Shown here in pieces: positions 1 to 28,709 of a DNA stretch of 64,000 nt. The notes under the pieces are model-generated. The model saw only the letters and a program-made list of their open reading frames with translations. It was not told where the DNA came from and ran no database searches. The translations under genes were made by a program, and so were the position numbers. Numbering within the stretch: position 1 is the first letter of the stretch; every line of letters begins with the position of its first letter. The stretch is from a virus: the IMG/VR virus record IMGVR_UViG_3300035041_000007, positions 14,284-78,283 of that record, one strand, 5' to 3'.

Positions 1-3000
1 AAGTATTAGACACTCCCACTTTAAAGAAGTTTTTAATATCGCATACTATATCCCCTTGAGATATATCAATACTTTTAGGCATTAAAGCATCGTGCGACCC
101 TGTAAATGGAGAATAGTCAGATCCAGAACCTGCAGCGTAAAAATTGTGATCTGAGCCGTACGCTATAAAACCGTATCTAGCTGTGGACATAACTCCCACA
201 TATCCGTCCCCATAAGTGCTTGAGTTAGTTGTTGCTCTAATAGCAATAGCTTGACTTACATGAGAGTTATAATTTTGAACCTCTACAGTTGGGTATGCAT
301 CGTCATTACTAGACTCTACCCATAAAGACCTACCTCTAGTATACTCACTATAACCTATTCTAGCTGCAGTCCTCTCGCTCGGAGAAGACCCATCATTATT
401 AGTGTCTTCTAAACCTAAACTGGCTATTGGAACTACATCATTGTTTAAATTACTGTCTCCAGAATACCCATAAACTCTTATCTTCTGAGTTCTTTCATCA
501 ATTACTATATTAGGAGCTAAAGGAATGACAGCAGTTAACTTACTAAAAGGGCCAAATGTGTCAACGGAAGATATACCATATAAGTAGTTAGAGGAGCTAC
601 TTTTACCAGTCCATTCAAAAAATTTAGGAACATCATCGTCTATAACATAGCCATTACCACTAGTTGGGAAATCTTCTACACTATTTAGGTACATGATAGT
701 ATCCCCAGCCTCTACAGGAGTAGTTATATATCCACCTTTATTTAAATGAGTAGAAGCACTTACTTGAATACCTCGTAGTACCCCCGTATTTATATTATCT
801 GCCGTGATCAATGATGCGTTAATAAACCCGCCAGATATTAGGGTATTTCCATTCGCTTGTGCGTTATCTATACTTGCCCCTAAATTCAATTGTGTTTGTG
901 TAACATCAGCATTATCGTGAGGTTTAGTTCCAGTCTCATCTCCTATTGCAGCCCATTGAGTTGGGTTTTCTACACTAATCCACGAACTACCTGACCACCA
1001 ATAAGGCTTGTTCTCGTCATTAGTATCATACCATAGATCACCTTTACCTTCTGGAGTAGGAGCAGTATCTTGATAAAAACTAACTATTTTACCATCAGCA
1101 GTAGACTGAGCAGTTGAAGCAGCACTTAATGCACTTTGTATATCATCATCTTGAACTTCTAACCAACTAGACCCTGACCATCTGAATAACTTATTTCCGT
1201 TATCTGTATCTATCCACAAATCACCAACACCCTCAGCAGTAGGGGTATTAGCCTGATAAAATGTAGTAACTTTACCATCAGCAGTTGCTTGAGCATTATT
1301 AGCGGCTGTTTGAGCATTTGTTATATCTTGTAATACTGTAGCAGCAGGTGTCCCATCTATATTATAAACATCATTGGCGGTGTTTTCGCTAGTAACATCA
1401 GCTCCATTAGCTACATTTATATCACTTCGTACCTCAGAAGCATTGCCTACATATATATTTCCACGAACTATTGCATTATTAAGTTCTGCCGTACCATCGG
1501 CATTAATACTCCACCCCTTTGTACCGGCATTATATGTATAGGAACGAATTAATGAACTTGTATGAGAACTGTCTCCAACTGTAAGATAGCTTCCCACAGT
1601 AAGATTATTAGTTAAAGTATCATCAGCTACTAAAGAGTCAGCAGCTACAGTACCTTTTACTAATAAAGATCCATCAATAGTTTCTACTACTATAGATGAC
1701 CAGTCAGTACTATAAAAAGAGTCAGTGGATACCTTTGTGTCACCTTGATAAATTCTTTGCGCTATAATATCAGGATTAGTACTGCTCTGTACAGTTACTC
1801 TATCCCCAGGCACTATATTATTATCAGGATTTTCACTAGAATCTATAACTAATTGAGCTACGCTATTTGATGTAGTATCTGTTATACTATCACTGGCCCA
1901 ATCTGAAGCAACACTATCAGAAGCTTCTATAGAATAGCTAACTCCCCCTCTTCTCCCTATATAATTCTTTGCAAAGTAAAAGTAATAAGTAGCTGCATTA
2001 GTAGTACCTTCTAAGTATACTTTAATAGGCAAATACCCACTATCTGCACTAACTGATTCAATATACGCAGTATTATCATCTTTTAAAGCCCCAGTACAAC
2101 CTACACCAGTCAATACTTCGATACTAAACTCATCGAAACCCGGAGGGTAAGGTACGGCTAATAACTCTGCCCCTTCTTTTATAACAGAAACATCTGTAAA
2201 CGCTTTACCGTTTATTCCTAATTCATTAGCTACAGGTGTTCCTTTCCAATCACAAAATATTTGCTGTGTAGATTTGGAGAGAACTATAGTATACCCTGTA
2301 GGTCCATTTCTTACTGCCTTAACAACAACTGGAGAAGACTCTAATATAGATACTTCTGTAGTACCGTCTAATTTATACGCAGTTGATACAGCAGTAATAG
2401 GAAAAGTATCGTAATTACCTAATGTTTCTGTAACCTCAAATACTCCTGAGGATACATTAGTCATGTCGTAACTATTTATGTTCCCTAATGCATCTGTTAT
2501 TTCTATACTAACCCCTTCATGGGCCGGCATGTCTGTTACAGTAGCGGTGAACCTGATACTAGGAATTGAAGGGCTACTTTCATTTATATAAGGTACTATT
2601 AAGTCAGAACTCTCTAGTAATATACTTTTATTAGGAGTTAAACTATCTTCTGTAGGTATTTCCCAATAATCTTCTTCAGTATCGACATCAGGAGCTATAA
2701 TACTCGGGTTTGTAGAGTCAAAATCTAAAGGATCATTAATAAATTTACTAGCTTCTATATTTATAGATAAATCTTTATTATATGTGACAGAGCTAATCAG
2801 AACTTTTTTAGTGTTACCATACAATTCATCATTTAACTCTAAAAAATCCCCTACTTTTACATTTAGGAGATCGTTTCTTGGAACTAGTTGAAATGACACA
2901 CTACCTTCTATATCAAACTCTTTATTATAATAAATTATTCCTAGTTTTTGAGCTACTACTGAGTCTCTTAAATAAGTCAAATCTAGTACATTTGAGGATG

Positions 3001-4249
3001 GATTACTAACATCTGATGCACTACTCTGTGTACTTTTACTCCATACTAAAGCTTCTGAAGGTCTATCTTGAGGTATATCTTCATTTAAGCTAAACTTAAT
3101 GTACCCTCCATCAGATGCTTTTATCCATGAAGGTCTAGAGCTAAAAGAGTTTTTAACTATATCTGTCCTTGTTAAGGATTTTACTACATCAGTAGAGTAT
3201 GGGTATAACTCAACCTTATCTGTAATCCTAAGTGTAGCATTGCATTGTGTTAATAATGAAGATAATCTAGCTCTTCTGTCTATTTGATTATAAAAACCAC
3301 CGTTCCAGTAAATTCCTTGACTTTCAAAAGTAGTCTTACTTGTAGCAAAAGTTCCTGCTGTATCAATTAAGCTTTCAGGTACCCCACAATCTTTTAAGAA
3401 TTTAGTGATTACATCCACAGGAGAAGCTCCAGGTGAAGTAAAAGGAAGTTCTGTAGAAGTTACTCTAGTAGGCATATCTAAAAAGAAGTCACCGTCTTTC
3501 CAGAGACCATTAGCATCTACTTCATTATCCCCATCACTATCTGCAATAATAGCCTGAAATACTTTATACCCGTCAGATATAGATTGAGGGAAGTTATAAG
3601 TGCTGTCCCAGGTTGACTGATTAGGCCATTCCTTAGGAGAAGCCACTTTATCAATCGTATAGGTAAATGAACTATCTCCTAGAGCATAGTATCTTTTTCC
3701 ATCACTAAACACTGATCTAAGAGGTATAAATGCTTTACCAAAAATTTGAGGTATAACATAATCATCTGACCTCTCAGTCTCTACTTTCCACACTTCTCTT
3801 GGGTGTAAGGTATTTGGGTGATCTCCTTCAAGATAGGTAGTAAGTATATTTTCCAAGTAAAAAGTTCCAGTTTTATAATACTGCTCTACCTTTTTAACTT
3901 TAAACTTCCATGTAGTATGTAAAGACCTATCAATCAACAGTTTTATAGTGACAGGCACAAAAGAGAACTTACTCTCTATAAGACCGTTATGTTCATCTAA
4001 TAGATCCTCTTCAAGAGATAAGTTGTAAGAATCCTCACCCTTTACTATAGCATCAGTAAATAAAACTGTAAAATTAATATCGGCTGGATGTATAATAGCG
4101 TTGGAGTCTGAGGCAGCCTCATTTATTCCACTAAAAGAGGAGGGGTCTATAATACCTTCATAGTATGTACCTTGAAACTCTGTGTCTGCGGTACTCCAAT
4201 TATATAATGTATCTTGAGTTTCTACCTCAAACAACCATTCAACTAACAT
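1..4249 (-). CDS. Large baseplate hub / central tail fibre protein, runs off the window start (>1400 aa; absent from ORF track)
   Basis: GGAG RBS then ATG at 4249 (MLVEWLFEVETQDTLYNWST...); same frame is open at 1-60 (QGDIVCDIKNFFKVGVSNT); contains repeated fibre motif DGK(V/I)xxFYQ...GDLWxDT; lies downstream of tape measure/fibre genes. Confidence 0.85.
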   Translation of the reverse strand, partial: MLVEWLFEVETQDTLYNWSTADTEFQGTYYEGIIDPSSFSGINEAASDSNAIIHPADINFTVLFTDAIVKGEDSYNLSLEEDLLDEHNGLIESKFSFVPVTIKLLIDRSLHTTWKFKVKKVEQYYKTGTFYLENILTTYLEGDHPNTLHPREVWKVETERSDDYVIPQIFGKAFIPLRSVFSDGKRYYALGDSSFTYTIDKVASPKEWPNQSTWDSTYNFPQSISDGYKVFQAIIADSDGDNEVDANGLWKDGDFFLDMPTRVTSTELPFTSPGASPVDVITKFLKDCGVPESLIDTAGTFATSKTTFESQGIYWNGGFYNQIDRRARLSSLLTQCNATLRITDKVELYPYSTDVVKSLTRTDIVKNSFSSRPSWIKASDGGYIKFSLNEDIPQDRPSEALVWSKSTQSSASDVSNPSSNVLDLTYLRDSVVAQKLGIIYYNKEFDIEGSVSFQLVPRNDLLNVKVGDFLELNDELYGNTKKVLISSVTYNKDLSINIEASKFINDPLDFDSTNPSIIAPDVDTEEDYWEIPTEDSLTPNKSILLESSDLIVPYINESSPSIPSIRFTATVTDMPAHEGVSIEITDALGNINSYDMTNVSSGVFEVTETLGNYDTFPITAVSTAYKLDGTTEVSILESSPVVVKAVRNGPTGYTIVLSKSTQQIFCDWKGTPVANELGINGKAFTDVSVIKEGAELLAVPYPPGFDEFSIEVLTGVGCTGALKDDNTAYIESVSADSGYLPIKVYLEGTTNAATYYFYFAKNYIGRRGGVSYSIEASDSVASDWASDSITDTTSNSVAQLVIDSSENPDNNIVPGDRVTVQSSTNPDIIAQRIYQGDTKVSTDSFYSTDWSSIVVETIDGSLLVKGTVAADSLVADDTLTNNLTVGSYLTVGDSSHTSSLIRSYTYNAGTKGWSINADGTAELNNAIVRGNIYVGNASEVRSDINVANGADVTSENTANDVYNIDGTPAATVLQDITNAQTAANNAQATADGKVTTFYQANTPTAEGVGDLWIDTDNGNKLFRWSGSSWLEVQDDDIQSALSAASTAQSTADGKIVSFYQDTAPTPEGKGDLWYDTNDENKPYWWSGSSWISVENPTQWAAIGDETGTKPHDNADVTQTQLNLGASIDNAQANGNTLISGGFINASLITADNINTGVLRGIQVSASTHLNKGGYITTPVEAGDTIMYLNSVEDFPTSGNGYVIDDDVPKFFEWTGKSSSSNYLYGISSVDTFGPFSKLTAVIPLAPNIVIDERTQKIRVYGYSGDSNLNNDVVPIASLGLEDTNNDGSSPSERTAARIGYSEYTRGRSLWVESSNDDAYPTVEVQNYNSHVSQAIAIRATTNSSTYGDGYVGVMSTARYGFIAYGSDHNFYAAGSGSDYSPFTGSHDALMPKSIDISQGDIVCDIKNFFKVGVSNT

Positions 4250-4324
4250 TTATTATCTCCTTTAAATTAACCTTCTATTTTTCTAATACGCTGTTAGCAA
4301 TACGTAGTACAAGTAGTTAATAAA

Positions 4325-4375
4325 TTACCAACTCGTAATCGCCACACGTTCCCACGTATCAGCCGTTAAACACAG
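4325..4375 (-). pseudogene. Remnant 3' end of an ancestral tail protein (LCLTADTWERVAITSW*)
   Basis: Alternative frame overlapping the stop of 4359-4862; resembles the common phage tail C-terminal motif CxATDTWxRVAxxxW*; no start codon of its own. Confidence 0.55.
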
Positions 4376-4862
4376 GCAACTCCGCAATCAACTCATCCAC
4401 TGTATGTATTTCCCGTGTTCCTGCTTTCACGTCAGCCAGAATACCTCTTGCAGTTGTCCACACATCTTTATTCCATTCCCACACAGAAGAGCAGAAAGCG
4501 TAATGCTCATAAGTCTCATCGTCTGCATAGCTCTTGCAGTTGTGTACGTTGTCGAAAGCCACTTCGTTGGTCTCGTTATAATTGTCTACCTCTGCTTGTA
4601 TGTATGCCGATACTGCATCTACACACTTATTACGATATTCACGTTGCTGTTGTGCCTGTAGCTGCTCGTCTAACTGCCATGAACCGTTTATGAAAACATG
4701 CGCTTCAGAAGGCTGCTGTTCAATCAACGTGCCACCATTAGCAATAAACTCTTCGTAGTCCGCCCACTCGTTGCAGTTTGGGTTTATCGCGTGGCTAATC
4801 TCTCCATCTTCGACCAGTATAACTTTGTCTGGCTTGTTTGTTGCTATGTATGTTTTTGTCAT
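4359..4862 (-). CDS. Tail fibre assembly / accessory protein
   Basis: 167 aa, RBS, directly after the Mtd-like gene; NPNCNEWADYEEFIANGG resembles tail fibre assembly proteins. Confidence 0.6.
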   Translation of the reverse strand: MTKTYIATNKPDKVILVEDGEISHAINPNCNEWADYEEFIANGGTLIEQQPSEAHVFINGSWQLDEQLQAQQQREYRNKCVDAVSAYIQAEVDNYNETNEVAFDNVHNCKSYADDETYEHYAFCSSVWEWNKDVWTTARGILADVKAGTREIHTVDELIAELPVFNG

Positions 4863-4914
4863 ATATTTTACTCCTATTTATTGCTTACCAGGCGCTCAAC
4901 AGATTGCCAGGAAA

Positions 4915-6063
4915 TCAGATTACAAAAGCGGGGCGAAACCCGACATTGCTGTACCGAAGCGACCGATCGTAAAGCAAGTTGAGAAAGAACACCCCGGCAT
5001 ACGTGCTGTGGTTCCAGTAGCCGCCGCGGATCGGGAGACGCTCTCCCACGTTGCGCACAAGTATCCTGTCGCCTCCCAGCCCGGCACCTACGGGATAGAT
5101 GCCCAGCGCGATTAGGAGTGCAGGCACTGAAACGCCTGTTTCGGCGGACAAACTCTCAAAGTACGTAATTGAGTATTCAGTTCCCGTGGATTGTGAAGTC
5201 AGGGTGGTATTTAAGATCGGCGATCCTGCGCCATTTGCGTCGGTAGCGTCATATTTCAGGGTGTCGGCTGTACCTGGTGTAACCAGAGACCCATCCTGCA
5301 AAATCGCTTTCCATTCGCTGCTAGTCGCGCTCTGGTCTTTCGTGTGGTCGGCAGCATTGTTGTCGGCAAGAATCTGAATCTCGCCGTCGTTTATCCGCAT
5401 ACCCCCTTGCCACTCCCACACATTACCGTGCATGTCGTGCACGCCGTGCATGGTGTGGTCGTGCGCCCAGGTTGCAGGGCCGGTGCCGGTGGCGGTACGT
5501 GCTGTGCCACTATCGCCGAGAATGGCAGCGGGGTCAGTAAGCCTTCCTGTCTCGTATTTGTAGTCGGCATCGCGCCCGTAGTTGTTGTTGCCATGCGGCA
5601 TGGTGCCATTCTTCCACGCCCATAATGCCAGCGCAGACCATTCAGCATTCGTGGATAGGTGCCAGCCGTTACCTTTTGCAGCACACGCAGCCAGAGCTCC
5701 ATTGAAGTCTATAAGATTGGCCGGATCGGCATCCGGCACAGATACGTAGTTACTCCCCTTCACACTTGCAAGATATTGCCCGTAATAGATAGCGTCTTTT
5801 TCTACCCCGTTTACTACGAACGCGGGGTGAACGCCCGTGCCAAGCGAAGCATCAATATCCTCAAGACGGAACTTCGGGATACGCACCATGCAGTTAGCGT
5901 CACCGAAATCATCGTAAATTATGGGGTTTCTACGCATATCTTCCATCGAATCTATGTATTTTTTATTGTAGTAATTCTTCTTATCCTCCGTAGCCATCGT
6001 ACCCAGCATACCATTGGTTGGCACATGCTCAGGCTTGCGGCCTACCTTAACTACACTGCTCAT
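4915..6063 (-). CDS. Major tropism determinant (Mtd)-like C-type lectin/FGE-fold receptor-binding protein with a DGR-type variable region
   Basis: Motifs WHLSTNAEW, DMHGNVWEW, RGGYW...NVGFRPAF; GC-richer than flanks. Confidence 0.85.
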   Translation of the reverse strand: MSSVVKVGRKPEHVPTNGMLGTMATEDKKNYYNKKYIDSMEDMRRNPIIYDDFGDANCMVRIPKFRLEDIDASLGTGVHPAFVVNGVEKDAIYYGQYLASVKGSNYVSVPDADPANLIDFNGALAACAAKGNGWHLSTNAEWSALALWAWKNGTMPHGNNNYGRDADYKYETGRLTDPAAILGDSGTARTATGTGPATWAHDHTMHGVHDMHGNVWEWQGGMRINDGEIQILADNNAADHTKDQSATSSEWKAILQDGSLVTPGTADTLKYDATDANGAGSPILNTTLTSQSTGTEYSITYFESLSAETGVSVPALLIALGIYPVGAGLGGDRILVRNVGERLPIRGGYWNHSTYAGVFFLNLLYDRSLRYSNVGFRPAFVI

Positions 6064-6483
6064 TTACGCACCTCCTATTACGCCGAAGCGTTGCGGGGGA
6101 GTTACTTGTATTTGGTTGCCTTCTCCGTCATCTATCATGTAGGGAGCGGTTGAGTAGACGGATTCGTACTTGTCGTTAAGGGAGGTGTCGTTGAAGATAG
6201 TGGAGTAAAGAGTATCTGCTGTACCCTTGCCTGTGAACGGTGCTTCCGCTAATACCTCTACACCTTCCATGCTACGCCATTGAGTTGCTTCTTCGTCAGT
6301 TAATCTAAGATAAGCCAACATGGAGTTACCGTTTATTGCCGCTGGTGTGCGGGCTATTCCGGTAACTACTGGAGGTTGGGCAATAGTGCCGTCCTCGTTC
6401 TTTTTTAATAGGTCAGGGTAGTTTGTAGCTAAGTAATCTGTGAAAGTTGGGAAGTCCTGTATGTATATAATTGCGTCAATCAT
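6064..6483 (-). CDS. Hypothetical tail-associated protein
   Basis: 139 aa, RBS, abuts tail fibre and Mtd-like genes. Confidence 0.6.
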   Translation of the reverse strand: MIDAIIYIQDFPTFTDYLATNYPDLLKKNEDGTIAQPPVVTGIARTPAAINGNSMLAYLRLTDEEATQWRSMEGVEVLAEAPFTGKGTADTLYSTIFNDTSLNDKYESVYSTAPYMIDDGEGNQIQVTPPQRFGVIGGA

Positions 6484-9267
6484 TTATTCCTCCGTGGTTA
6501 GGGCGATAAGGTTGTTATCGGTTAGGGCTTTGGGATAGTAGGATAGGTGTCGGATGTGGCCGTTGAGTTGGTTACTTCCCACCTTACTACCAATTTCTAA
6601 AGCTGTTAATCCTTGAGGTATTCCAGTAGGGATATCGGTCTGCAAACCTTCAACATTCCCAACAACACTAAATAAATCATTTGTAACCTTAAAGGCAATA
6701 TTCCTCACCTGTCCTGCTGTTCCACTAGTTGATGTTATATACACATCGCCAGCATTATTATATTCAGAGCTTAGGTATCTTTTATACCCTCCACGAAGTT
6801 GTAACAAGATTGCGCTAGTTTGAACATTATGGTCACTCAGAACTACAAGATTTTGATAATTATCAGAATCAAAACTTGATGCCTCAACAACAACCGTCCC
6901 CTCTTGCTGATTATAAAAATCACTGAAGTCAGTGCCATCAATATAAGCCACATCCGCTGCACGAGTCGTAGCCGTTGATGTGCTGATGTCTGCTGCACGG
7001 GTTACTGGTGCTGAGGTTGTTGGGATGTAGGAAGTTGGGCGGTCGCCTTCTTCGAGTTGGGCTCCCCAGATGTATAAACCTGAAGTGCCGTCTCCGGCAT
7101 AGCCAGACAATGAATTTGAATTAAAAACATACGCGATAAATTCACCTGTATCTGTAGCATCGGCAGTTAATACAACAGCACAGCGATACCATCCATCAGA
7201 GACACTTTCTATCAGTACATCATCAACACTGTTTGTTATGCCTATTGTACCGTTTGTTAAATCGAAATAAGCATAATCTGGGTAAATAAATCCAGCACCG
7301 GCTCCAGAAATTCTTAAGTAGTCGTATTCTCCTTTTTTAGCAAAAATAGATAGAGAGTATTGTACACCAAGAGTTACAGATGAAACCGTTTGGAGAGTCT
7401 TATGTGTAGCATCTACTGTCGATGCTATCAGTTTATCGGCTGTAGTTGTACCGTCAGGTGCAGTAACAGCGTTGGGGGTGATAGTTGCGCTTGCTTTAGT
7501 CCAATCCGCATGATCGAACTGCTCAGAATAAGTAAGCAAATTAGTCGAACTATCCTCAAGCAACAATTTAGGAGGAGCGGTTAAGTCAGCGGGGTTGTAG
7601 TTATACCTCGGCTCGTCTATACCAGCTATTTGTATATACCCGTTGCTATCATAATATAGTGCTGTAGAAGCACGAGAGGTGAAGGATATGTCCGAAGGTA
7701 TATAGGGTGAAGGGGAGGAGCCTTCTTCTAGTTGGGCTCCCCAGATGTAGATGCCTGATGTTCCATCACCTGTGTAAACTCGATTGTCACCTGCAGAGCT
7801 TATTAAGTTAACTCTTGCTTTATGCTCTGTACATGCTGCTGTAGTTGTATAAGTAACCCAACATCTACGCCAACCATCAAGGAGTATGTCCATCCCTGCG
7901 TTTGTTATAAGTACATTAGTTGTTGCTAGTGGCCCAACATTTAAATCAAATGTGATAGCAGATGTTGCACTAATCTCCCCAATATGTACAGGTCGGATTT
8001 CCACATAATCACCAGAGTTACCCTTCTTAACGTATAACGACTTGGTAAATGTTCCCTCAGTTTGTGTCAGTATCTGCTCCATATAATGTTCTGCATTGTC
8101 AGTATTAGCAACCAGCTTATCTGCTGTCAACGTCCCATCTGGAGCAACTGCTGTGTTTGGTACTACAGCTGCTTCTTTTTTAGTCCAAGCCGCATTCCCA
8201 AAGTCCTCACTATAAGTAAGTAAATTAGTCCTGCTCTCCCAGATACTAAGTCCTTTACACTCGCCTGTCACAGGGTCGTGGTCGATAGTAGGTTCGTCTA
8301 CATCTGCGTAGCAGAGCCTACATTTGTGGTCGTAGTAAGACTTATTAGATGCACGACTAAAGGTGATACGTGGGTCTATCTCTTTGCTGTAGAAGTCGAG
8401 TAAGAGAGATGGGCGAATGCTAGGGTATTCGAGCATCCCGTACATAGCCAACCAATCACTAGATGATGTTGTGGGTTCGCTAGTTGTTATGTCGGTTAGG
8501 TTATTTAATAAAGTCCACATTATACCGTTATGGTAGACGGATGCTGGGATTGAGAGAGAGCCTGTTAGGTTACTCCAGATACCTGCGTAGTTAGCAGAAG
8601 AAGCTGCTGCCTGTTCTGATTGGCTTGCGGAAGTAGCAGAAGCAGCAGCATTAGACTCACTAATTGATGCGTTATTAGCGGAAGTTGCAGCATTAGATGC
8701 ACTGGTAGCGGCGCTAGAGGCACTAGAGGCTGCATTGGATTCACTTGTTGCTGCGTTACTAGCAGATGTTGCAGCGTTGGATTCGCTAGTCGATGCCGCG
8801 CTGGCTGAGTCTTCTGCTTTAGAGGCCCAATGATAGGAAGAATATTCATCTACTTCGTTACCTTCAGGCACTAGTTGGTCTTCAGGGTATTGTGCCCAAT
8901 TGTAGGATTCTGTAGCGCTTTCATAAGCTTCAGCATAGGGGTTAGCAAAAGGTATCCTTTCCCATACACTACCTGTAAATATTATTATATCTCGTGCTAC
9001 CCAAGTAGAGTTACCGTCTATAGTAGTAGTACCTTCAACTGATACAATATAGTACCTACCATTAGAACCTACTCCCGATGAGATAGTAGGTGTATTAGTA
9101 GAAGCATCCCAAGTACCTGCAAATTGTAATTCTCCGGAAACCTTCCCGGTAATATAAGCATAGGATACTTGCTTTATATTTTCTTCATCTTTATCAAATA
9201 ACAATAATGTATCTTCATTAGAAGGGTCAGTTGTTAATATAGGATAATAATTAAATTTCTTACTCAT
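6484..9267 (-). CDS. Mosaic tail fibre protein
   Basis: Stf-like ASxSExNAAxSA repeats; two tandem TNLLTYSE...YIWGAQLEEG...YIP carbohydrate-binding-like modules; LamG-like C-terminus. Confidence 0.85.
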   Translation of the reverse strand: MSKKFNYYPILTTDPSNEDTLLLFDKDEENIKQVSYAYITGKVSGELQFAGTWDASTNTPTISSGVGSNGRYYIVSVEGTTTIDGNSTWVARDIIIFTGSVWERIPFANPYAEAYESATESYNWAQYPEDQLVPEGNEVDEYSSYHWASKAEDSASAASTSESNAATSASNAATSESNAASSASSAATSASNAATSANNASISESNAAASATSASQSEQAAASSANYAGIWSNLTGSLSIPASVYHNGIMWTLLNNLTDITTSEPTTSSSDWLAMYGMLEYPSIRPSLLLDFYSKEIDPRITFSRASNKSYYDHKCRLCYADVDEPTIDHDPVTGECKGLSIWESRTNLLTYSEDFGNAAWTKKEAAVVPNTAVAPDGTLTADKLVANTDNAEHYMEQILTQTEGTFTKSLYVKKGNSGDYVEIRPVHIGEISATSAITFDLNVGPLATTNVLITNAGMDILLDGWRRCWVTYTTTAACTEHKARVNLISSAGDNRVYTGDGTSGIYIWGAQLEEGSSPSPYIPSDISFTSRASTALYYDSNGYIQIAGIDEPRYNYNPADLTAPPKLLLEDSSTNLLTYSEQFDHADWTKASATITPNAVTAPDGTTTADKLIASTVDATHKTLQTVSSVTLGVQYSLSIFAKKGEYDYLRISGAGAGFIYPDYAYFDLTNGTIGITNSVDDVLIESVSDGWYRCAVVLTADATDTGEFIAYVFNSNSLSGYAGDGTSGLYIWGAQLEEGDRPTSYIPTTSAPVTRAADISTSTATTRAADVAYIDGTDFSDFYNQQEGTVVVEASSFDSDNYQNLVVLSDHNVQTSAILLQLRGGYKRYLSSEYNNAGDVYITSTSGTAGQVRNIAFKVTNDLFSVVGNVEGLQTDIPTGIPQGLTALEIGSKVGSNQLNGHIRHLSYYPKALTDNNLIALTTEE

Positions 9268-9671
9268 GGTTTAATCCCTTCTACTCTCAAAGTTATTGAG
9301 CTTATAGTTCTATAATCACATATATTCCCCCGTTGAACTCTAGTTAAAGGAGTCATAAATCTAACAGTGTAGGTATACCCGTCGGATGGATGTACCCAAT
9401 AGAAAGTTTTTTCTCGTCCATTAGCTTTAGTATAAGACACCCATAAACTTTCTATAAAAGAAGTTTCGGTTAATGTTAAAATTTCCCACTCAAGTGAAAT
9501 ATCAAAGAAAATATTTTTTGAAAATGTGGTAACATTAACAGTGCCGTCGTCAGCTTCATATAAGTTTTGAATTCTATTAGCAGAGTCACTTAAAGTCCGC
9601 TGAGGAACTATATTAAGTTCCTCAGCGGTATAATCTGCTTCTATAATATTTAAATAGTCTCCCATTGCCAT
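9264..9671 (-). CDS. Minor/distal tail protein
   Basis: 135 aa immediately after tape measure; TFYWVHP...YTVRF resembles distal tail proteins. Confidence 0.55.
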   Translation of the reverse strand: MAMGDYLNIIEADYTAEELNIVPQRTLSDSANRIQNLYEADDGTVNVTTFSKNIFFDISLEWEILTLTETSFIESLWVSYTKANGREKTFYWVHPSDGYTYTVRFMTPLTRVQRGNICDYRTISSITLRVEGIKP

Positions 9672-9672
9672 A

Positions 9673-12600
9673 TTAACGTACCTCTTGTCTTACTGCTTTA
9701 TGAGTTTCATGGTCAGTTCTATGCCACTCTACATGGTAGTCTTTCATTTCTCTGGTCCCTAAGTATACTTTAACTTCCATATTAGAGCCACCTCCATTGT
9801 TAGCCGATAAAGCTTCGGCGATAGCATCTGCAATCATCTTAGTAGAGTCTGAGTTAGAGTAAATTCTGCTAGAACCAGTGTACTCTAGCTCCGGTCCTTG
9901 TTCCCCTACCAATCTCCAGCCGCCCGTATGGTAACCACCTGTGGCGTACCCAGGCAAATTAATCCCAAGGGAGTTCTTATAATTCTCATAAATATCAGAA
10001 CCAAACATGCTTTCTAAGTAGCTTTGCGTAGATGCCCTACGTAAGTCGCCACCTTCAAGGCTGTTGACAATTGCGCTAACTAGGGTGTTACCTTCTAGGT
10101 CAGAGTAAGCCCATTTTAATATTTGGTCTGAGGAAGGAGACTCCCCCAATATATCTGTTAGTACATTTTCTACATAGAAGTATCTGCTACCATCCACAGA
10201 GTCGGAAAACATGGATGCAGTTTCTTTTGCCTCTTTCAAAATTCCCATTGTGCTATCAAAAGCATCTCTATAGTTACCTCCATATGCAGCCATATAGTCT
10301 AAGTAATTTTCTGAGAATCTTGTGAAGCTATCTACCGCATCTGTGAGTTCCTGTGGAGTTCTAGCATTAGCTATGGCGTCCTGCAATTCTGAATAGGTGC
10401 TTTCATAATACTCCATTGACTGGACAGGAGATTTATCAGAACCTAATAATTTGTTTATTAAGTCATCAATTGACTTAGTTGAATTATCTCTAGCTTCCGC
10501 TAATTGATCTTCGGCGTTAGCTAAAGTTTCAGTTCTGTCAATATAATCTTCAATATTATATATCTGCATTTGAAGCTGTTTACCAACTTCAGTAAGTTGT
10601 CCAAGAGCTTCTTTGCGTTCCATTGCAGTAGCTTGTTCTTCTTTACCTAGTAGATTAAGAATCTCAATTTGTTGGTCTTGGTAGCCTTGTAAATCCTCAA
10701 GAGCCCACACCTGTTCTTGTACGGCACGTACCGATGGTGCGAGTGCTTCTAACTCTCGCTTTCGCTCTTCTGCTATAGCATTAACTCCATCTCCTGAAAG
10801 ATAAAGTATCTCTAACTCTAGGTCTCTGCGTTTTTCTAATTCTTGGAGAGCCCACACCTGTTCCTGTTGTGCAACTAGAGCAGGGTTTAATTCTCTAAGA
10901 GTTTCTAATTCTTTTTCTCGCTCTAATACTAGAGAAGCGTACTCTCCTTGTAAAATACGAACGGACTCGGCTTCAAACTCAAATTGCTTGTCAGATACTT
11001 TTTCCAGATAAGCATAGTATTCATCAAGCTTTTCTGTAGAAGTTAATAAACTAGTAAAAGTATCCCTACCTTTTTCTGTAGTTAAATCAAAAGTTCCCAT
11101 TAAATCTACAAAAGCATCTCTAGTTTTAGGTAGGGTAAGATTATACCCTTCAAATATTTTTTCTAGTTGAAAAGAAGACCTAGCAAAACGATGCGCTTCA
11201 CTTGTAAACGACTCAGAGAATGTTTCGGCAGCTTCCTGGAAATCTTTTAGACCTCCAGCTTGATCCGCTAAGTCCATTGATACTTCGACTTCTTGTGCTA
11301 AGTCTTTAAAACCGTAGTCTAAATAATCAAGAAACTCTTGTATTACTACATTTGTTGATGCTACTCTGAACCCTGTCTCTGCAAGCCCTTCCTCTAACTG
11401 TTGATAATCTTTCAACCAGTCACCTAGTATATCTTCAATTAACATATCCCCCATAGTAGAATATGCTTGCTGCAAATGTTTCTCAAGGTCTTCGGGGGAA
11501 ACCCAAGTGGAAGAATGTCCATTATCTGTTGCTCCTGAGATAATTTCTACTCCAATACCTTTCATAGTAAGAGCGTTAATCTCATCCGCACTTTTACCAA
11601 ACATCATTGCCAGATCAGTAGTAGAAGATGCCACTTCTGTGTACATATTTTCCCACAGTCTCTGAATATTAGCAGTTTGTTCAGAATAAGCTTCTCCTGC
11701 CCCTTCTATAAGGTCAAATTCATAATCTCTAATACTACTAGACTTTGTCTGCCTAGCTGTAGTCTCTAAATTAAGTGGGATTGGTTTTCCTGCTAATACA
11801 TCCTGTAAAGTAATATCCTCACTAGTTACATGAGCTCCGTAAGTGTACCACCCACTTCCCATACCAGCTTCAGAATAATATTCACTAAGAGTGCTACCTC
11901 TTTGTGATTCCCCCCACTCAGGTATATCTCTAACTAAACTGAGATTAAGGCCCTTGACTCCAGAGTTAAGATTATCAATACCGTCAGATATAGCTCTTAA
12001 CTGGTAATATTCTTTTGCATGAATTTCTTTAAGTAATTCATCAGTTTTTGCATATGATTCTGAAAAATCATCAGAACCTAATACTGTGCTTTGTACAGAC
12101 TTGCCACCCACGGAAAATCCCGCAGACATTGATCCAGTACTTGCTGAAACCTCACCAGAATCACCAAATTCAGTTGAGGAAATCTGGGCAATTTGTGCAG
12201 CACCAGTAGCTGCAGCGGCAGCAGCCATAACTAAACTCTGGGGGAAAGGCACTGTGGCAAGAGCATTCATTATTGCCCCCGCAGTATTAACTACAGTAGA
12301 GGCCAATTGCATTTTCTTTGTTAACTCAAACCCTTCCCTAGAAGTTTGATCTTGTGCTTCAGCCATGGAAGAAAGCATGCCCCCTACAGCAGAAACTGTC
12401 TGTCCATACATAGCTATCTTTGATTTAGCTGCATCTTTTTCTATTTGGGTTTCTTTCTCTTTTAAAGAAGCTAATAGACGAGTTTGTTCTTTACTTCCAT
12501 CTATAGTATTTTTTAGAACTTCTGCACGTTTCTCTTTTATAGCATCAAGGGCTTCTATCTCAGCTTCATGAGCCTTAGGAATTTGTTGTAATGCTTCAAC

Positions 12601-15600
12601 AATATTTAGAACCCCCTTAGCAGTATCAGAGTGATCCCCCAACCCTTCTAAGGCAGAAGATAAATCTGGTATATCAAAATCAAACTCTAAATCGCCAATT
12701 GACTCAGTTAATTCTTCAATAACACTTTTATATTCATTAATTTTATCCTGAATACCACTATCAATAGCTTTTAGAGCTAATTCTTGTTCTGCATCTATCG
12801 CCGCTAGTGCGGAAGATTTACCTTCCTGGAGCAGACTTTCGTATTTAGCAGCGAAATTTTCTGGCATTTCTTTATCTGCTAATGCGAAGCGTTGTTTTAA
12901 TATTTCAAACTCCATTTCTGCTAGAGTATATTCAGATTCAATAGTATTACGTCGAATCTGCGCTTCTTTTTCAGCAGCATCAATCTTATCTTGTTTCAAC
13001 TTTTTAGATATTTCAAGCTCTTCTTTAGCTGTTACTTCCCCATCTGCACCTGCAGTCATACGCAACTGCTCTTCTTTTAAGGAAAGTTCAGCTGCTAAAC
13101 GATCTTGTGTATTTTTCACAATATCACTAGAAAGTTTTTTCAGAATCTGGGTTCTCGATATTCTCGCTTCAAGAGAGGCAATATCTCTTTCGGCAGCAGA
13201 AGATAGTCTAGTCGCTAAATCAGCTATTTCTCTATCTATCTCAAGAATTTTGTCTTTAGCACCTGCTTGATCTTCAATTTGTTCTTTATACTTTTCTAAG
13301 GCTGTTATTTGTGCCTGTACACTTCTATCAAGTGCCTTATAATAATCATCTACTAATGAAGGGTCGAGATCAAGGAGTCCTTCTAAGTCCTTGGCTTCAT
13401 CCTTGAACTTTTTAGCATTTCTTTCTGCATTAGCAATATCAGTAGAAGCTTGTTCCCACTTAGAAATATAGCTCTCCAATCCTTGTAAATCAGGAGTAGT
13501 TCCCAATACTTCTATTATATCTGCTGGGAGTTCCTCCCAAACAGCCTTTAATCTATCACTATCTGAAGAAGCATTATTAAGAGCACTGGAAATTTGTACT
13601 AATGAACCAAGAACATTCTCAAAAGGTTTTTCATCTGCTTCTAGAAGTTTAGTAAATTCTATATTAAACTTTCTGGAAGTTTCAGATAACCCCTCTAATT
13701 CTACTATAGCTTGCTTTGTTGACCCAGCCATATCGTCAATGGCTTTTTTAACCTCTTGCACAATTTCAGGGTCATTAGCGAACTCTCTAAGTACATCTTG
13801 ATATTGTTTATAAAGACGCAATTCTTCTTGCATTGCTTCGGAAATAGTTTTATTAGACTCAATATTTATAATCGCATTCTCTAGGAGATTATCTGCTATG
13901 CTTGCAGCAGTATTTCTAGAAGCTTCTCCCAGATCGTTCATTTTTTCCTCTATGTTTTGGAGGGCAAAGTAATATTCAGTAGCTTTATTTCTACCAAACA
14001 TTTTGTTATTTGCATCCATTACCCTTTGGGCAGCTTCCCCTCCAGCCTGTAATTTTGCTACTTCTTCAGAAGTTAAATCACTCTCTAATTCTCTTAAATC
14101 TTCCCTAAGAGATTTTATAACTTCCATTTCTTTCTTTTTTTCTAAATCTAATACCTTTTCTATACCATCTGCAATTTGTCCATAAACACCTGCTTGAGCT
14201 TTAAGAGATGCAGTATAGAGCTCTGCATTTCTTTTAGATTCTGTCATAGAAGAACTCATTAGTTCTATATTAGCAATGGTATCATCTAAAGTATCGTTGA
14301 TTTCTGAAAAACTATCAAAGCTTTTTACAATTTCATCTACTTGCTTTTCTATATCTGATTTTCCAAAAAGCTTACTCCAAACAGCTTGTAGAGCACCAAA
14401 AGCGGTAATTGCTAAGCCAATGTAGGGCAAAAATCTTAATACTGCAGTTCCCAGTAACTTGAAGCTACTAGTTAAATTAAATACTGCAATTTTGGTTTTT
14501 GCTAATGCCTTACCAAAAGTTCCCTGAACTTTCATGTTTCTATGCATAGCTGTGGAATAGCCGTCCATAGCTAGACGTTGTAGATTTAATGCTTCTTTAA
14601 ATTCTCCCCTTGCTACAGCTGCTAAAGATGCAGATTGAGTATCTTTAACATTAGCTATATCATGAGCTATTATAGATTCGGTTAATTTTTTACGTGCTTC
14701 AGTAACTTGCTCAAGTTTTTCTGGATCAGTAGCATTAGTCATACCTGCTAATGATTTATTTAAACTAGTTATAGCCTTTCGTTGTTCTTCCAAAGTTATT
14801 GTGCCCGATTGGATAGAATCTGACAACTCCCTAAAGCCTTTTGGGAGGTTTGAGGTAATTTTTATTTGTTTTAACTGCTCTTTAGATAAATCACGAAAGT
14901 TTTCAGCCGATTTAGTGGCTGCATCTGCAGTCTCATATAAGGCAGGTAACATTTTAGATGCTACTGAAGTTCCGAAAATACCTATCACACCTATTAGAGC
15001 ACTAGTATTATTAGCAATTAAATCTAAAAATGGCCCTAGTCCTGTGTTGACTAACTCTAAAGAGCTTTTTGTAAGATCCCTAAATCTAGCAGCTAATTGA
15101 TTATAAGGATTTGGGTCAATTTTTTCAGCTATCTGCCCGAATTTATCAGTACCTTGGTCAATTATAGCATTAGTAAATGCCATTCTACGCTCAAAATTAG
15201 TAAGACTATCAGTTGTTTTGCCTAGATTTTCTGCGTATGCCCTAGTAACATCATCGAGGCGAACCATGATACCTAATTCGTCAAGGATTTCAGGCTCTAA
15301 TTTCGCAGCACCTCGTACAAGTCGAGACATTGCATCTTCCATATCACGACCCAACGCAAGTGAAGCACCTTTCGCCACGCGCGTTAACTCTTCCATTTGG
15401 GTTGTAGAGAAGCCTGCACTAGTGCCTAAAGCTACGGATTCCATAGCTGATTGGGTAGAAATAGCAGCTCCAGTAATTTCACGTAGCTGATCTGCAATAT
15501 ACGGAAGATTCTGGCCTGCGGCTGAGCCTACCGCAATCAAACCAGCCTCAAGTTGCTCAAGGCCAGCTGCCCTTTTTAAAGCACCAAAAGCCGCTGACAC

Positions 15601-15870
15601 GGCAAAGATGTTAGCGGCTAATGTTGCATAGGCGGGAACAAGCCCAGAGCCAATAGTCTGGGCTTGTTTTGCAAAAGATTTGGTTGTATTAGATGTGAGC
15701 TGAGCAGACCCTTTCTCTAGTTTGCTATATCTGTTTTTACTATTACTGGCTTGATCAGTAGCATGGCTAGAGTCTTTTACTACTTTACTTAATTTATTTG
15801 TATCTGATGTAACCTGCTTTAGGGTTCCTTTATCAGTTACTTCAAATTCTAATGTGATTTTATTTGCCAT
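9673..15870 (-). CDS. Tape measure protein (T5 pb2-like N-terminus)
   Basis: 2065 aa, helical, Ala/Leu/Glu-rich; LGRDMEDAMSRLVRGAAKLEPEILDELGI resembles T5 pb2; follows the chaperone genes. Confidence 0.92.
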   Translation of the reverse strand: MANKITLEFEVTDKGTLKQVTSDTNKLSKVVKDSSHATDQASNSKNRYSKLEKGSAQLTSNTTKSFAKQAQTIGSGLVPAYATLAANIFAVSAAFGALKRAAGLEQLEAGLIAVGSAAGQNLPYIADQLREITGAAISTQSAMESVALGTSAGFSTTQMEELTRVAKGASLALGRDMEDAMSRLVRGAAKLEPEILDELGIMVRLDDVTRAYAENLGKTTDSLTNFERRMAFTNAIIDQGTDKFGQIAEKIDPNPYNQLAARFRDLTKSSLELVNTGLGPFLDLIANNTSALIGVIGIFGTSVASKMLPALYETADAATKSAENFRDLSKEQLKQIKITSNLPKGFRELSDSIQSGTITLEEQRKAITSLNKSLAGMTNATDPEKLEQVTEARKKLTESIIAHDIANVKDTQSASLAAVARGEFKEALNLQRLAMDGYSTAMHRNMKVQGTFGKALAKTKIAVFNLTSSFKLLGTAVLRFLPYIGLAITAFGALQAVWSKLFGKSDIEKQVDEIVKSFDSFSEINDTLDDTIANIELMSSSMTESKRNAELYTASLKAQAGVYGQIADGIEKVLDLEKKKEMEVIKSLREDLRELESDLTSEEVAKLQAGGEAAQRVMDANNKMFGRNKATEYYFALQNIEEKMNDLGEASRNTAASIADNLLENAIINIESNKTISEAMQEELRLYKQYQDVLREFANDPEIVQEVKKAIDDMAGSTKQAIVELEGLSETSRKFNIEFTKLLEADEKPFENVLGSLVQISSALNNASSDSDRLKAVWEELPADIIEVLGTTPDLQGLESYISKWEQASTDIANAERNAKKFKDEAKDLEGLLDLDPSLVDDYYKALDRSVQAQITALEKYKEQIEDQAGAKDKILEIDREIADLATRLSSAAERDIASLEARISRTQILKKLSSDIVKNTQDRLAAELSLKEEQLRMTAGADGEVTAKEELEISKKLKQDKIDAAEKEAQIRRNTIESEYTLAEMEFEILKQRFALADKEMPENFAAKYESLLQEGKSSALAAIDAEQELALKAIDSGIQDKINEYKSVIEELTESIGDLEFDFDIPDLSSALEGLGDHSDTAKGVLNIVEALQQIPKAHEAEIEALDAIKEKRAEVLKNTIDGSKEQTRLLASLKEKETQIEKDAAKSKIAMYGQTVSAVGGMLSSMAEAQDQTSREGFELTKKMQLASTVVNTAGAIMNALATVPFPQSLVMAAAAAATGAAQIAQISSTEFGDSGEVSASTGSMSAGFSVGGKSVQSTVLGSDDFSESYAKTDELLKEIHAKEYYQLRAISDGIDNLNSGVKGLNLSLVRDIPEWGESQRGSTLSEYYSEAGMGSGWYTYGAHVTSEDITLQDVLAGKPIPLNLETTARQTKSSSIRDYEFDLIEGAGEAYSEQTANIQRLWENMYTEVASSTTDLAMMFGKSADEINALTMKGIGVEIISGATDNGHSSTWVSPEDLEKHLQQAYSTMGDMLIEDILGDWLKDYQQLEEGLAETGFRVASTNVVIQEFLDYLDYGFKDLAQEVEVSMDLADQAGGLKDFQEAAETFSESFTSEAHRFARSSFQLEKIFEGYNLTLPKTRDAFVDLMGTFDLTTEKGRDTFTSLLTSTEKLDEYYAYLEKVSDKQFEFEAESVRILQGEYASLVLEREKELETLRELNPALVAQQEQVWALQELEKRRDLELEILYLSGDGVNAIAEERKRELEALAPSVRAVQEQVWALEDLQGYQDQQIEILNLLGKEEQATAMERKEALGQLTEVGKQLQMQIYNIEDYIDRTETLANAEDQLAEARDNSTKSIDDLINKLLGSDKSPVQSMEYYESTYSELQDAIANARTPQELTDAVDSFTRFSENYLDYMAAYGGNYRDAFDSTMGILKEAKETASMFSDSVDGSRYFYVENVLTDILGESPSSDQILKWAYSDLEGNTLVSAIVNSLEGGDLRRASTQSYLESMFGSDIYENYKNSLGINLPGYATGGYHTGGWRLVGEQGPELEYTGSSRIYSNSDSTKMIADAIAEALSANNGGGSNMEVKVYLGTREMKDYHVEWHRTDHETHKAVRQEVR

Positions 15871-16255
15871 GAGACTTCCTCTTCATCTTTTCATGCGCTT
15901 TCTTCAACTCATCTGAAGATTTCTTTATTTGTCTACGATCCATCCATAGTAATATTTCTAACAAAAGTTCTTTATTTTCCACTTTATGAACTTCTATTAA
16001 AATATCTAAATTGGTATAGTCTTTACCAAGATAACCTATATCCGGGTAAACTCGATCACCTAGTGAGTTGAAGATTACTATGGCATCTTGAAAAATTGGA
16101 GGAAAATCCCCCAATTGAAGAGGGATTTTCTCTGGGTCTGGTTCTTGCCCTAACTCATCACAAATCTTGTAATACTTTTCTACATCTATCTTAGAGTCTG
16201 ACTGAGTAAAGAACTTTTCAATATACTTAAAAAGTTCCTCTCTTTGTTCAGTCAC
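15860..16255 (-). CDS. Tail assembly chaperone, second ORF (probable frameshift extension)
   Basis: Overlaps the upstream chaperone in the +1 frame, GTG start lacks an RBS, lies before tape measure. Confidence 0.7.
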   Translation of the reverse strand: MTEQREELFKYIEKFFTQSDSKIDVEKYYKICDELGQEPDPEKIPLQLGDFPPIFQDAIVIFNSLGDRVYPDIGYLGKDYTNLDILIEVHKVENKELLLEILLWMDRRQIKKSSDELKKAHEKMKRKSHGK

Positions 16256-16649
16256 GAAAATTGGAGATATCGAAAACTACCTCATTAAGCCACTGATCGA
16301 ATTCGCTTGAACTATTTACTAAGATTTCGGCGTTTTCGGCAGTGTAAGGAAGCTCCTCTTCCATATCCTTTCCTTCTGTATCAATAAGGATAAGATTCTG
16401 TAGATTATCTAGAGTTAGGCCTTTCCAATTACGTACAGTAGCTTTTGTAAATTCTTTAACAAACTTTTCATCATCAAGTTTGTCTTCAGCCGTATGAGTT
16501 TTGCGATTAAATTTCTGGTAAGTACATTTCTTACGGAGATTAATCAATTCCTTACGAGAAAGGTTAGCAACCTCTACCTCAAAGCCCGGAAGCCCAGGAA
16601 AGTTAACCCATGCGGTTTTCCAGTCTAATACAAGATTCTTCAGTTCCAT
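16248..16649 (-). CDS. Tail assembly chaperone
   Basis: 133 aa between major tail protein and tape measure; WKGL motif. Confidence 0.8.
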   Translation of the reverse strand: MELKNLVLDWKTAWVNFPGLPGFEVEVANLSRKELINLRKKCTYQKFNRKTHTAEDKLDDEKFVKEFTKATVRNWKGLTLDNLQNLILIDTEGKDMEEELPYTAENAEILVNSSSEFDQWLNEVVFDISNFRD

Positions 16650-16724
16650 GTTTTGTTACTCCTTTTTTTCATTTAAGATAATTTTTGCTATCTAAGTACC
16701 TATTACTCAGAAGCTATTATAAAT

Positions 16725-16753
16725 AGTATATCGAGAGACGGGGTATGAGTCAA
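16725..16753 (-). promoter_or_regulatory. Sigma70-like promoter for chaperone/tape measure operon
   Basis: TTGACT-17 nt-TATACT. Confidence 0.65.
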
Positions 16754-16774
16754 GATAAATTTTTCTGTTGGGTA

Positions 16775-16811
16775 ATAAAAAACCTCCTAACCGTAGCTAG
16801 GAGGTTTTATT
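16775..16811. terminator. Rho-independent terminator after major tail protein
   Basis: Stem AACCTCCTA/TAGGAGGTT with A/T tracts on both sides. Confidence 0.75.
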
Positions 16812-16830
16812 AATTATTACTTAGATACTA

Positions 16831-17976
16831 TTAATAGGTATCACCGGTGTAAACTATAGTAGCTTCGTCAGTCTGAGAAATATCAGAAGGAAGCGCATGG
16901 AAGTTTGTTTCTACAGCAATGACATCATCAATGCTGTGAGAAGGAACTTCCAGGTGGCACTGAGGGAAGTTAAACTCGATACGTGGAACGTTAGAGCCCC
17001 CCACTGAGAACTTAAGGGCAAAAGAGTTGGTAATTGTTTGTGTTGCCCCAATGATATCTTCGAAAAGATCCCCAGTGCTTCCAACTTCAGCATTAAGATA
17101 AGCTGTAAAAGACCCGCTAATTGAGCGAGTACCAGTGACAGCGCCAATGCTGTGGTTCACAGTACATAGTACTTCTGGAGTCAAGAAGGTTATGTTATTC
17201 TCAAAGTTAATACTTCCACCCGTAAGTACAACATTATAAACCCCATCGTTTGACTCACCAGGGAAAGTAGTGGTGTCTGCTGCTGTAACAGTTAGTGAAG
17301 TAAGACGGTTACGAATAAAGTTAGAAGTAGCCTGAGTAGCCTCTGTGATTGTAGGAGTAGGCTCAGTTGCTACTTCTTCAATAATAGTACCTTGTCCTGA
17401 CCATTCGATAGTAGCGATACCATCAATATCAAAACTAATAGACACAGATCCGACTACACAATTAGATACTTTGTAGTTAGTTTTAGTAAGGGCATTACTA
17501 CAAGCCCCAAGACAGAAATAGAGATCAAAAGTTCCCAACTCTGATTTATTAGATCCTGTGAAATCAATAGTCATTCCAGTTGGTGTAGAAGTTACACCCT
17601 CTGCCCAACTAGAGTCAGAAACTCCAGTAGTTCCAGGAGTGAAACTATTAAGCGCTACAAAGTTAGCCCAAAGAGCCTCTTCTACAGCGTGGTGCATTGC
17701 TGTGTCAGGTTCCCACCCGTCAGTTGCTCCAACTTGTGATACAAATGGGCGTACATAAGTAGTAAAACTCCACTCTGCAGGAGCATAACTATCAGTGAAC
17801 ATCTGGCGTCCCCGTCGGCTAGTGCCGTCAGATGCCGCCATTTCGTTGAGGGTTACCTCAGATGTATTAGTTGATTGTGAGAAACTGTACCCATTAAGAA
17901 TGGGAATTCCCCAAATGTTAGCATCCTGTTCTAGGTATACTTTAGTATCTCTGCTAAAATAAAGTTGATCTGCCAT
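16831..17976 (-). CDS. Major tail tube protein (T5 pb6-like, no Ig domain)
   Basis: 381 aa; RDTKVYLE, GYSFSQSTN, PAEWSFTTYVRP; position in module. Confidence 0.85.
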   Translation of the reverse strand: MADQLYFSRDTKVYLEQDANIWGIPILNGYSFSQSTNTSEVTLNEMAASDGTSRRGRQMFTDSYAPAEWSFTTYVRPFVSQVGATDGWEPDTAMHHAVEEALWANFVALNSFTPGTTGVSDSSWAEGVTSTPTGMTIDFTGSNKSELGTFDLYFCLGACSNALTKTNYKVSNCVVGSVSISFDIDGIATIEWSGQGTIIEEVATEPTPTITEATQATSNFIRNRLTSLTVTAADTTTFPGESNDGVYNVVLTGGSINFENNITFLTPEVLCTVNHSIGAVTGTRSISGSFTAYLNAEVGSTGDLFEDIIGATQTITNSFALKFSVGGSNVPRIEFNFPQCHLEVPSHSIDDVIAVETNFHALPSDISQTDEATIVYTGDTY

Positions 17977-18010
17977 TTTTCTTTTTCCTCTCTAATTACT
18001 GATTATTTAA

Positions 18011-20168: not shown

Positions 20169-20180
20169 AAGTCAACTTGT

Positions 20181-20215
20181 AAAAACCTAGGAACCCTCCG
20201 AAGAAGGTTCCTAGG
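20181..20215 (-). terminator. Terminator after capsid gene
   Basis: 10-bp stem CCTAGGAACC/GGTTCCTAGG followed by a T tract on the minus strand. Confidence 0.75.
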
Positions 20216-20225
20216 CTCCCTTTAT

Positions 20226-24063: not shown

Positions 24064-24110
24064 CTATAGAAATGATACCATCACTACCATATCAAGTCAA
24101 CAATAATTTT

Positions 24111-25829: not shown

Positions 25830-25852
25830 TTATTATCTCCTTTTTGACTACC

Positions 25853-25881
25853 ATTATATAATAACTCAGTCAAAAAGTCAA
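25853..25881 (-). promoter_or_regulatory. Dedicated promoter of the homing endonuclease, overlapping a 10-bp inverted repeat
   Basis: TTGACT-17 nt-TATAAT; arms at 25840-25849 and 25868-25877. Confidence 0.8.
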
Positions 25882-25903
25882 GTCTTATTTTTCAGTCTCT
25901 AAA

Positions 25904-28699: not shown

Positions 28700-28709
28700 G
28701 GTTGCTAGA

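Follow-up and report, generated by a model that had tools for sequence, protein, structure and literature searches.

The DGR of phage BPP-1 consists of the variable region of mtd (mtd-VR), the IMH, a GRNA hairpin, avd, the template repeat (TR) and the reverse transcriptase (RT) gene brt, and its relatives are found in VHML, VP585, FP_Lagaffe and Pseudomonas phage Bise. In BPP-1, the hairpin is GC-rich, has a 4-nt GRNA loop, lies 4-34 bp downstream of the variable region and is needed for efficient homing (PMC3240598). Loss of the stem-loop impairs homing severely, but not completely (PMC12875486). The relatives keep the order target, hairpin, avd, TR and RT, and their hairpins match the GRNA consensus (PMC3240598). 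The avd-TR-RT core is also established to act in trans, and the remote DGR targets of Treponema denticola and Legionella have their variable regions away from any RT, while they share a genome with the core and keep the cis elements (PMC5758913). A cellular DGR with its own RT and template is known from Thermus aquaticus, where the variable protein TaqVP has a C-type-lectin/FGE-type fold (PDB 5VF4; PMC6328139).

The locus described here lies in the window, the whole 64,000-nucleotide stretch that was analysed (bases 14284-78283 of the 87,919-bp virus record G000), and it resembles these systems in part. As in BPP-1, its tail receptor-binding gene ends in an adenine-specific variable region that is closed by a GC-rich IMH-like segment, and like TaqVP the locus encodes a protein of the same fold family with the variable region in the same C-terminal position. 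Unlike BPP-1 and its relatives, it has no avd, TR or RT, and its hairpin is cut in the 3' arm. While TaqVP belongs to a cellular DGR, the protein of the window is a phage tail tip encoded in a genome without a DGR. It also differs from the remote targets, since there is no core in the genome and the hairpin is destroyed, and from the BPP-1-type DGR phages, which are temperate or Mu/P2-like, since its carrier is a T5-like phage with no integrase. The locus is not a DGR, because RT, template repeat and avd are all absent, and it is not a fully competent target by the BPP-1 criteria, because the hairpin is absent. To our knowledge, T5-like phages of this kind are not known to carry DGRs, and a limited set of literature that was searched contained no paper on orphan DGR variable regions in T5-like phages. 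The coordinates of all features are collected in Table 1.

Table 1. Features of the tail-tip locus, in window coordinates.
Feature	Position	Strand	Details
Putative tail-fibre assembly chaperone	4359..4862	(-)	167 aa
Conserved block	4784..4933	(-)	97-100% identical in all orphan loci (sliding identity profile)
Deletion-joined sequence	4863..4883	(-)	ribosome-binding site of the next gene, AGGAG, at 4871-4875; common to all orphan loci
Remnant of hairpin 3' arm	4884-4885		two bases left; deletion junction between 4884 and 4883
Spacer with remnant of DGR target hairpin	4884..4914	(-)	5' arm 4890-4895; former loop 4886-4889 (now GGTA)
IMH-like GC-rich 3' end of variable region, with stop codon	4915..4941	(-)	invariant among alleles (for one base in L002, see text)
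DGR-type variable region	4942..5061	(-)	core 4942-5019 = residues 349-374, 26 codons; further adenine-type variable codons are scattered as far back as residue ~335
Predicted tail-tip receptor-binding protein	4915..6063	(-)	382 aa; TaqVP/Mtd-like C-type-lectin (FGE-sulfatase) domain, residues ~48-382
139-aa protein	6064-6483		between tip gene and 927-aa fibre gene
Tail fibre or tail protein, 927 aa	6484..9267	(-)	phrog_5939 'tail protein', 9.6e-128, and several tail-fibre PHROGs

The protein that carries the variable region matched the Pfam FGE-sulfatase family above the cut-off in a profile search (PF03781, 2e-07) and phrog_2889 among the PHROGs (1.9e-128), and residues 48-382 are homologous to TaqVP (PDB 5VF4, E 5.4e-75). 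By the matches to PDB 5VF4 and PF03781, its C-terminal domain has the CLec/FGE fold of DGR target proteins, and we classify it from its sequence as a member of the CLec DGR-target family. Its homologues in cultured phages, at 34-52% identity, are the target proteins of the DGR-carrying phages Bise, FP_Lagaffe, VHML and VP585, and in Pseudomonas phage Bise and FP_Lagaffe the order target, Avd, RT is annotated. A nucleotide search of the region against cultured phages gave no match. The gene sits in the tail module, downstream of the gene for the 927-aa tail-fibre protein and with the 167-aa gene next to it. Its product is predicted to be a receptor-binding tail tip, built on the C-type-lectin fold that DGRs diversify. 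The 927-aa protein probably carries this tip, perhaps via the 139-aa protein, which would then have a docking role.

The sequence-only reading had assigned the phage to the T5-like group, and this is borne out by its T5-type structural and first-step-transfer genes and by their order, albeit as a distant relationship. The A1-like DNA transfer protein (phrog_1745) and the major tail protein are respectively 37 and 33% identical to those of ~114-kb Vibrio T5-like phages, and across the A1-like transfer protein, major tail protein and tape measure, the identity to Vibrio, Salmonella and E. coli T5-likes is 33-37%. The replication genes of G000 are in T5-like order, and the record contains no tyrosine integrase. 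A 572-aa HNH/homing-endonuclease gene (window 24111-25829, minus strand; phrog_3339, 9.5e-109) lies between the portal and large terminase genes. No Mtd-like gene is present in the close relative G005, whose tail-tip and tape-measure region does not align with that of the window (G000 13258-29422, window ~1-15100). From this comparison, the whole distal tail module appears to have been exchanged between near-identical T5-like phages.

The ORF, its C-terminal residues and the pyrimidine-ending codons from which a DGR-type variable region had been proposed are all present as claimed. For a comparison of alleles, relatives of the C-terminal module of the tip (80-100% amino acid identity) were taken from IMG/VR, JGI, ENA and Logan contigs. 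Among seven nucleotide alleles, the 26 codons of the core have 16, 14 and 0 variable sites at codon positions 1, 2 and 3, against 40, 27 and 118 in 290 codons of the gene body; given the body rate, the absence of variable third positions has a chance of ~1e-6. None of the 48 invariant core sites of the window's allele is an adenine, therefore every adenine position varies and nothing else does. In a five-allele comparison, an A is found in some allele at 26 of the 30 variable sites, and three or more bases at 19 of them. Differences between alleles are confined to template-adenine sites, that is to positions 1 and 2 of AAY-type codons. The 80-100% cluster contains at least 11 alleles at the protein level, and the orphan loci, which have the variable region and no core, at least six at the nucleotide level. 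The variable region of the tip also aligns with that of TaqVP. Variation of this kind is the signature of adenine-specific mutagenic retrohoming from a single template. The alternative is ordinary diversifying selection on the ligand-contact residues of a lectin fold, with no DGR involved. The variable residues are indeed the ligand-binding ones, and positive selection would act at the same positions. However, ordinary mutation would not spare every third position and every non-adenine site while the flanking synonymous sites diverge by ~40%, and homologues with the same scaffold adjoin avd, template and RT, which leaves this alternative with a negligible likelihood. With the allele pattern and the homology to TaqVP, the proposal of a DGR-type variable region in a receptor-binding protein has held up. 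Its accompanying premise has fared less well: the trace itself stands, but to find one in a lytic phage is less remarkable than was assumed, as complete DGRs have been published for lytic phages of Bacteroides (PMC8143477).

The IMH-like 3' end that a competent target has in the BPP-1 model is present. The segment is conserved, homologous to the ends found in canonical relatives, and the same in all close alleles but for one base in L002. In the variable-region 3' end at L002:11035-11062 (in G001), this base is C, as in the templates of relatives (GCTCTT), and all other variable regions have T (GCTTTT). The C may be the footprint of a homing event with its 3' crossover one marker further downstream.

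The sequence-only reading had noted no RT, Avd or template repeat, and this holds for the window as well as for the entire 87,919-bp record. A profile search of the record gave no RVT_1 match, and tblastn with three DGR RTs and three Avds found nothing in G000, G001, G002 and G003; in the positive control L042, the same search returned the RT at 1e-39 to 1e-53 and the Avd at 1e-6 to 1e-10. Used as a BLAST query on the whole record, the variable region matched only itself. An adenine-aware scan, which accepts a mismatch only opposite an A of the candidate template and which recovered the true template in the control L050, was negative in the whole G000 record, in L002-L004 and in the whole of G001. 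None of the three components of a complete (autonomous) DGR cassette, RT, template repeat and avd, is found in G000, and the gene downstream of the tip encodes a chaperone-like protein, not a four-helix-bundle Avd. The same holds for G001, a complete carrier of the same cassette (52,637 bp, direct terminal repeats), in which there is no RT, Avd or template.

One of the options left by the sequence-only reading was that the core lies elsewhere in the phage's own genome, with the tip as a non-adjacent target and the core in an unassembled part. The completeness of the record as estimated by CheckV is 79%, a 114,484-bp contig encodes a protein of the 90% cluster of the window's tip, and phage DGRs with non-adjacent targets within 50 kb are known (PMC5758913). 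Against this stands the gene order in G005, whose portal protein is 98% identical: the polA (right) and PhoH/helicase (left) ends of G000 are ~1.7 kb apart there. The stretch between them codes for the C-terminal part of polA, a small ORF and a PIN domain, and an RT is found neither in it nor elsewhere in G005. Since the ends of G000 are neighbours in G005, the record ends abut and nothing large is missing. Judged by this gene order, the CheckV figure appears to be misleading, and a core in the missing 21% of the genome was rejected. As RT, Avd and template are also absent from all 87.9 kb and from the complete G001, a core elsewhere in the genome is very improbable, and we consider this option essentially excluded. 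The PhoH, helicase and polA genes of G000 (L220:3-4072, L221:6618-9545) contain LAGLIDADG, intein or homing-endonuclease inserts that G005 does not have, and these probably broke the G000 assembly at its ends.

The search for a template and an RT in the phage and in other genomes, as had been proposed, found neither in the phage record. When the scaffold pattern was used as a template query, the viral collection (IMG/VR) returned three known relatives only, and in the species-genome collection there were a chance match and a variable region that belongs to another family, and no template. Metagenome contigs returned L042, which is a canonical cassette from a different family, together with L041 and L043 from the family of L042, as well as L044, and no cognate template. 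Templates were also sought beside 160 RTs that are related to the RT of the closest canonical DGR; none was cognate, the highest identity being 84%. The 'variable region' of L048 (the P0008 contig) is identical at its 3' end to the L050 template, IMH*-type end included, and the contig breaks off 50 bp further on; most likely, L048 is an assembly jump from variable region to template.

In the ten canonical relatives that were checked, a GC-rich stem with a GATA, GAGA or GACA loop follows the target stop codon after 18-28 nt, and avd comes next. In the window, a stem search found no hairpin 3' of the tip gene, and the fold z values were -0.13 and -0.31, so the GC-rich GRNA-loop hairpin of the BPP-1 model is absent. 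We also considered whether the conserved block of 150 bp forms a new cis structure, and rejected this, since no fold exceeded that of shuffled controls. How the hairpin was lost can be read from a sister contig, L309, which encodes a tip 84% identical to that of the window at the amino acid level and has an identical variable-region scaffold. Here the 6-bp hairpin is intact (GCGCCT-GACA-AGGCGC, fold z -2.2) and next to it lies the N-terminal part of an Avd, with 76% identity to the Avd N-terminus of L050, in which the contig ends. L309 is 93.9% identical over 3.5 kb, up to the hairpin, to the orphan L051, which has the same siphovirus backbone. A search with the exact L309 hairpin sequence gave no match in the viral or genome collections.

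Seven orphan loci (window, L002, L003, L004, L047, L059 and L305) share one common junction. All of them keep the spacer and the 5' arm, have two bases left of the 3' arm, and then continue with the ribosome-binding site and start of the 167-aa gene; the loop has drifted from GACA to GGTA in five of the seven. In the DGR-carrying L142, the homologue of the 167-aa gene has its start 4 nt before the RT gene ends. This adjacency of RT and chaperone indicates that the ancestral order was tip, hairpin, avd, TR, RT, chaperone. A single deletion accounts for the orphan arrangement; its direction and the number of deletion events we infer. The family has other scars as well: a hairpin followed by a 45-aa Avd stump in L308, a hairpin followed by a short avd remnant in L049, and loss of the whole spacer in L307. 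With at least four different junctions, at least three of them besides that of the window, these sequences argue for a recurrent loss of the core in the tip family. The 31-nt spacer has three small differences, which are combined in four ways among L309, L003, L002 and the window; this points to recombination, or repeated formation of the junction, within ~20 nt.

The first ~60 residues of the 167-aa protein form a conserved module, which is fused to different C-terminal parts across phages. The protein is 59% identical over its first 94 residues to an L051 protein (DUF4376) and 47% identical to an L049 protein (Phage_tail_APC), and is a putative assembly chaperone of the tip. Its first ~25 codons belong to the conserved block, together with the junction and the 3' end of the variable region. 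Outside this block, the tip body is mosaic and ~88% identical on average, and the rest of the chaperone gene is 30-68% identical. The cassette is found in T5-like (window, L047), podovirus-like with SU10-type adaptors (G001, L054, L059) and siphovirus (L051) backbones, and the tip proteins, which differ in their N-terminal fibre parts, are 382, 416, 501, 559, 598 and 735 aa long. G001 encodes a 385-aa tyrosine recombinase (C1:33801-34223; L310, L311), and its backbone may be temperate, unlike the T5-like one. In the podovirus-like carrier L054, an IS605-type OrfB/TnpB gene (L054:539-1717) adjoins the capsid module. Mosaic cassettes of a tail-fibre tip and its chaperone occur in P2/Mu/lambda-type phages. 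As in those, the C-terminus of the fibre moves between unrelated phages as a unit with the N-terminal portion of the gene that follows; unlike those, the cassette of the window has a DGR-written patch and the scar of a deleted retroelement.

We consider that the window locus is probably a frozen orphan cassette which was spread by recombination. The last ~40 codons of the tip would have been written by a DGR, by means of cDNA from a template repeat with randomised adenines, at a locus that consisted of the tip gene with its variable region, the GRNA-loop hairpin, avd, the template repeat, RT and the chaperone gene, in this order. A deletion from inside the hairpin 3' arm to just upstream of the chaperone gene would have removed avd, TR and RT. 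It would have left a compact cassette of the tip C-terminal domain, variable region, junction and chaperone N-terminal module, and recombination would then have carried this cassette, within one habitat, to at least three or four phage backbones that are unrelated to each other, among them that of the T5-like phage without an integrase. In that phage, the variable region would no longer be rewritten, and a fixed allele would be inherited like any other sequence. As the retroelement would have been deleted before or during the spread of the cassette between phages, the patch seen here is most likely a frozen fossil, and the window's allele is presumably inactive as a homing target. Among the origins offered by the sequence-only reading, a frozen import is the best supported one, given the truncation of the hairpin at the deletion junction and the presence of the same allele in three contigs. 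These encode P0001 (window), P0121 (on the 114,484-bp contig) and P0122 (L047), and L047 is 99% identical to the window over 5.9 kb, with ~6% difference in the tip body. In two other orphan lineages, the exact proteins P0124 and P0006 are found on 5 and 7 contigs, respectively, from several samples. L305 has 10 changes at non-adenine sites, as is expected from ordinary drift after freezing.

Not all of the data fit a simple, single freeze. Orphan loci with one junction have at least six nucleotide alleles, in genes whose bodies differ by 8-14% while the non-adenine sites of the variable region are identical, and a single old deletion followed by freezing is insufficient on its own to explain this diversity. 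L044 and L059 differ at 0.65% of gene-body sites, but within the variable region at 15 of 81, in every case at codon position 1 or 2 (the L044 contig ends inside the variable region, short of the junction), which indicates that alleles were changed or swapped recently in one lineage. The allele diversity could be explained by recurrent deletion at the same spot in a DGR-carrying population, by recombination via the conserved flanks, or by low-level homing in trans. The last of these is mechanistically possible, because loss of the stem-loop does not fully abolish homing (PMC12875486; PMC5758913). A competing explanation, which takes in the diversification in trans offered by the sequence-only reading, is that the orphan cassette is still fed with new alleles by sibling phages or prophages that carry a DGR and share its host cells, either by short-patch homologous recombination via the conserved flanks or by residual retrohoming in trans, with the IMH kept and the hairpin lost. 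It would account for the many alleles behind one common junction with perfectly identical non-adenine sites, and for the contrast between L044 and L059, near-identical outside the variable region. A DGR-carrying sister with the same scaffold is known in L309, the four spacer haplotypes suggest that recombination operates at this very short range, and the avd-TR-RT core works from a separate replicon, with low-level homing in the absence of the stem-loop (PMC5758913; PMC3240598; PMC12875486). On the other hand, the T5-like lineage itself has one allele only, exact orphan proteins recur across samples, the loop in most of the orphan loci is no longer GACA, and a cognate template was not found in viral, genome or metagenome collections. 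We therefore hold a continuing supply of alleles to be unlikely, though worth keeping in view. A more far-reaching version of it is that phages without a DGR, including integrase-less T5-like ones, keep the stripped variable-region cassette as a landing pad for alleles, which strikes us as rather improbable. The same degree of doubt applies to the associated claim that these alleles come from DGR phages sharing the host, through short-patch recombination or low-efficiency retrohoming in trans. If this were true, one retroelement would supply hypervariation to a guild of unrelated phages, and the ecological question is raised whether phages that lack a DGR benefit from the diversity which DGR-carrying neighbours generate.

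If the window locus is a frozen orphan cassette, it illustrates how the product of targeted hypermutation can part from its retroelement: the DGR core between tip gene and chaperone gene would have been deleted repeatedly, and the compact cassette then passed among unrelated phages. Orphan variable regions as such were already known, and so were DGRs in lytic phages (PMC8143477) and remote targets with action in trans (PMC5758913). New here are the exact scar in the hairpin, the apparently recurrent loss of the core between tip and chaperone genes, and the proposed arrival of the stripped cassette in a T5-like phage. In annotation, an active DGR should not be deduced from a DGR-type patch, and the state of the downstream hairpin offers a quick test.

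Outside the tip family, a 24-nt scaffold motif of the tip variable region is also present in L042, L041, L043 and L039, which represent a different CLec target family on Dehalococcoidia-type contigs. RT or Avd was not found within the 14 kb of L043 that were examined, and L042 has a textbook target-Avd-TR-RT cassette.
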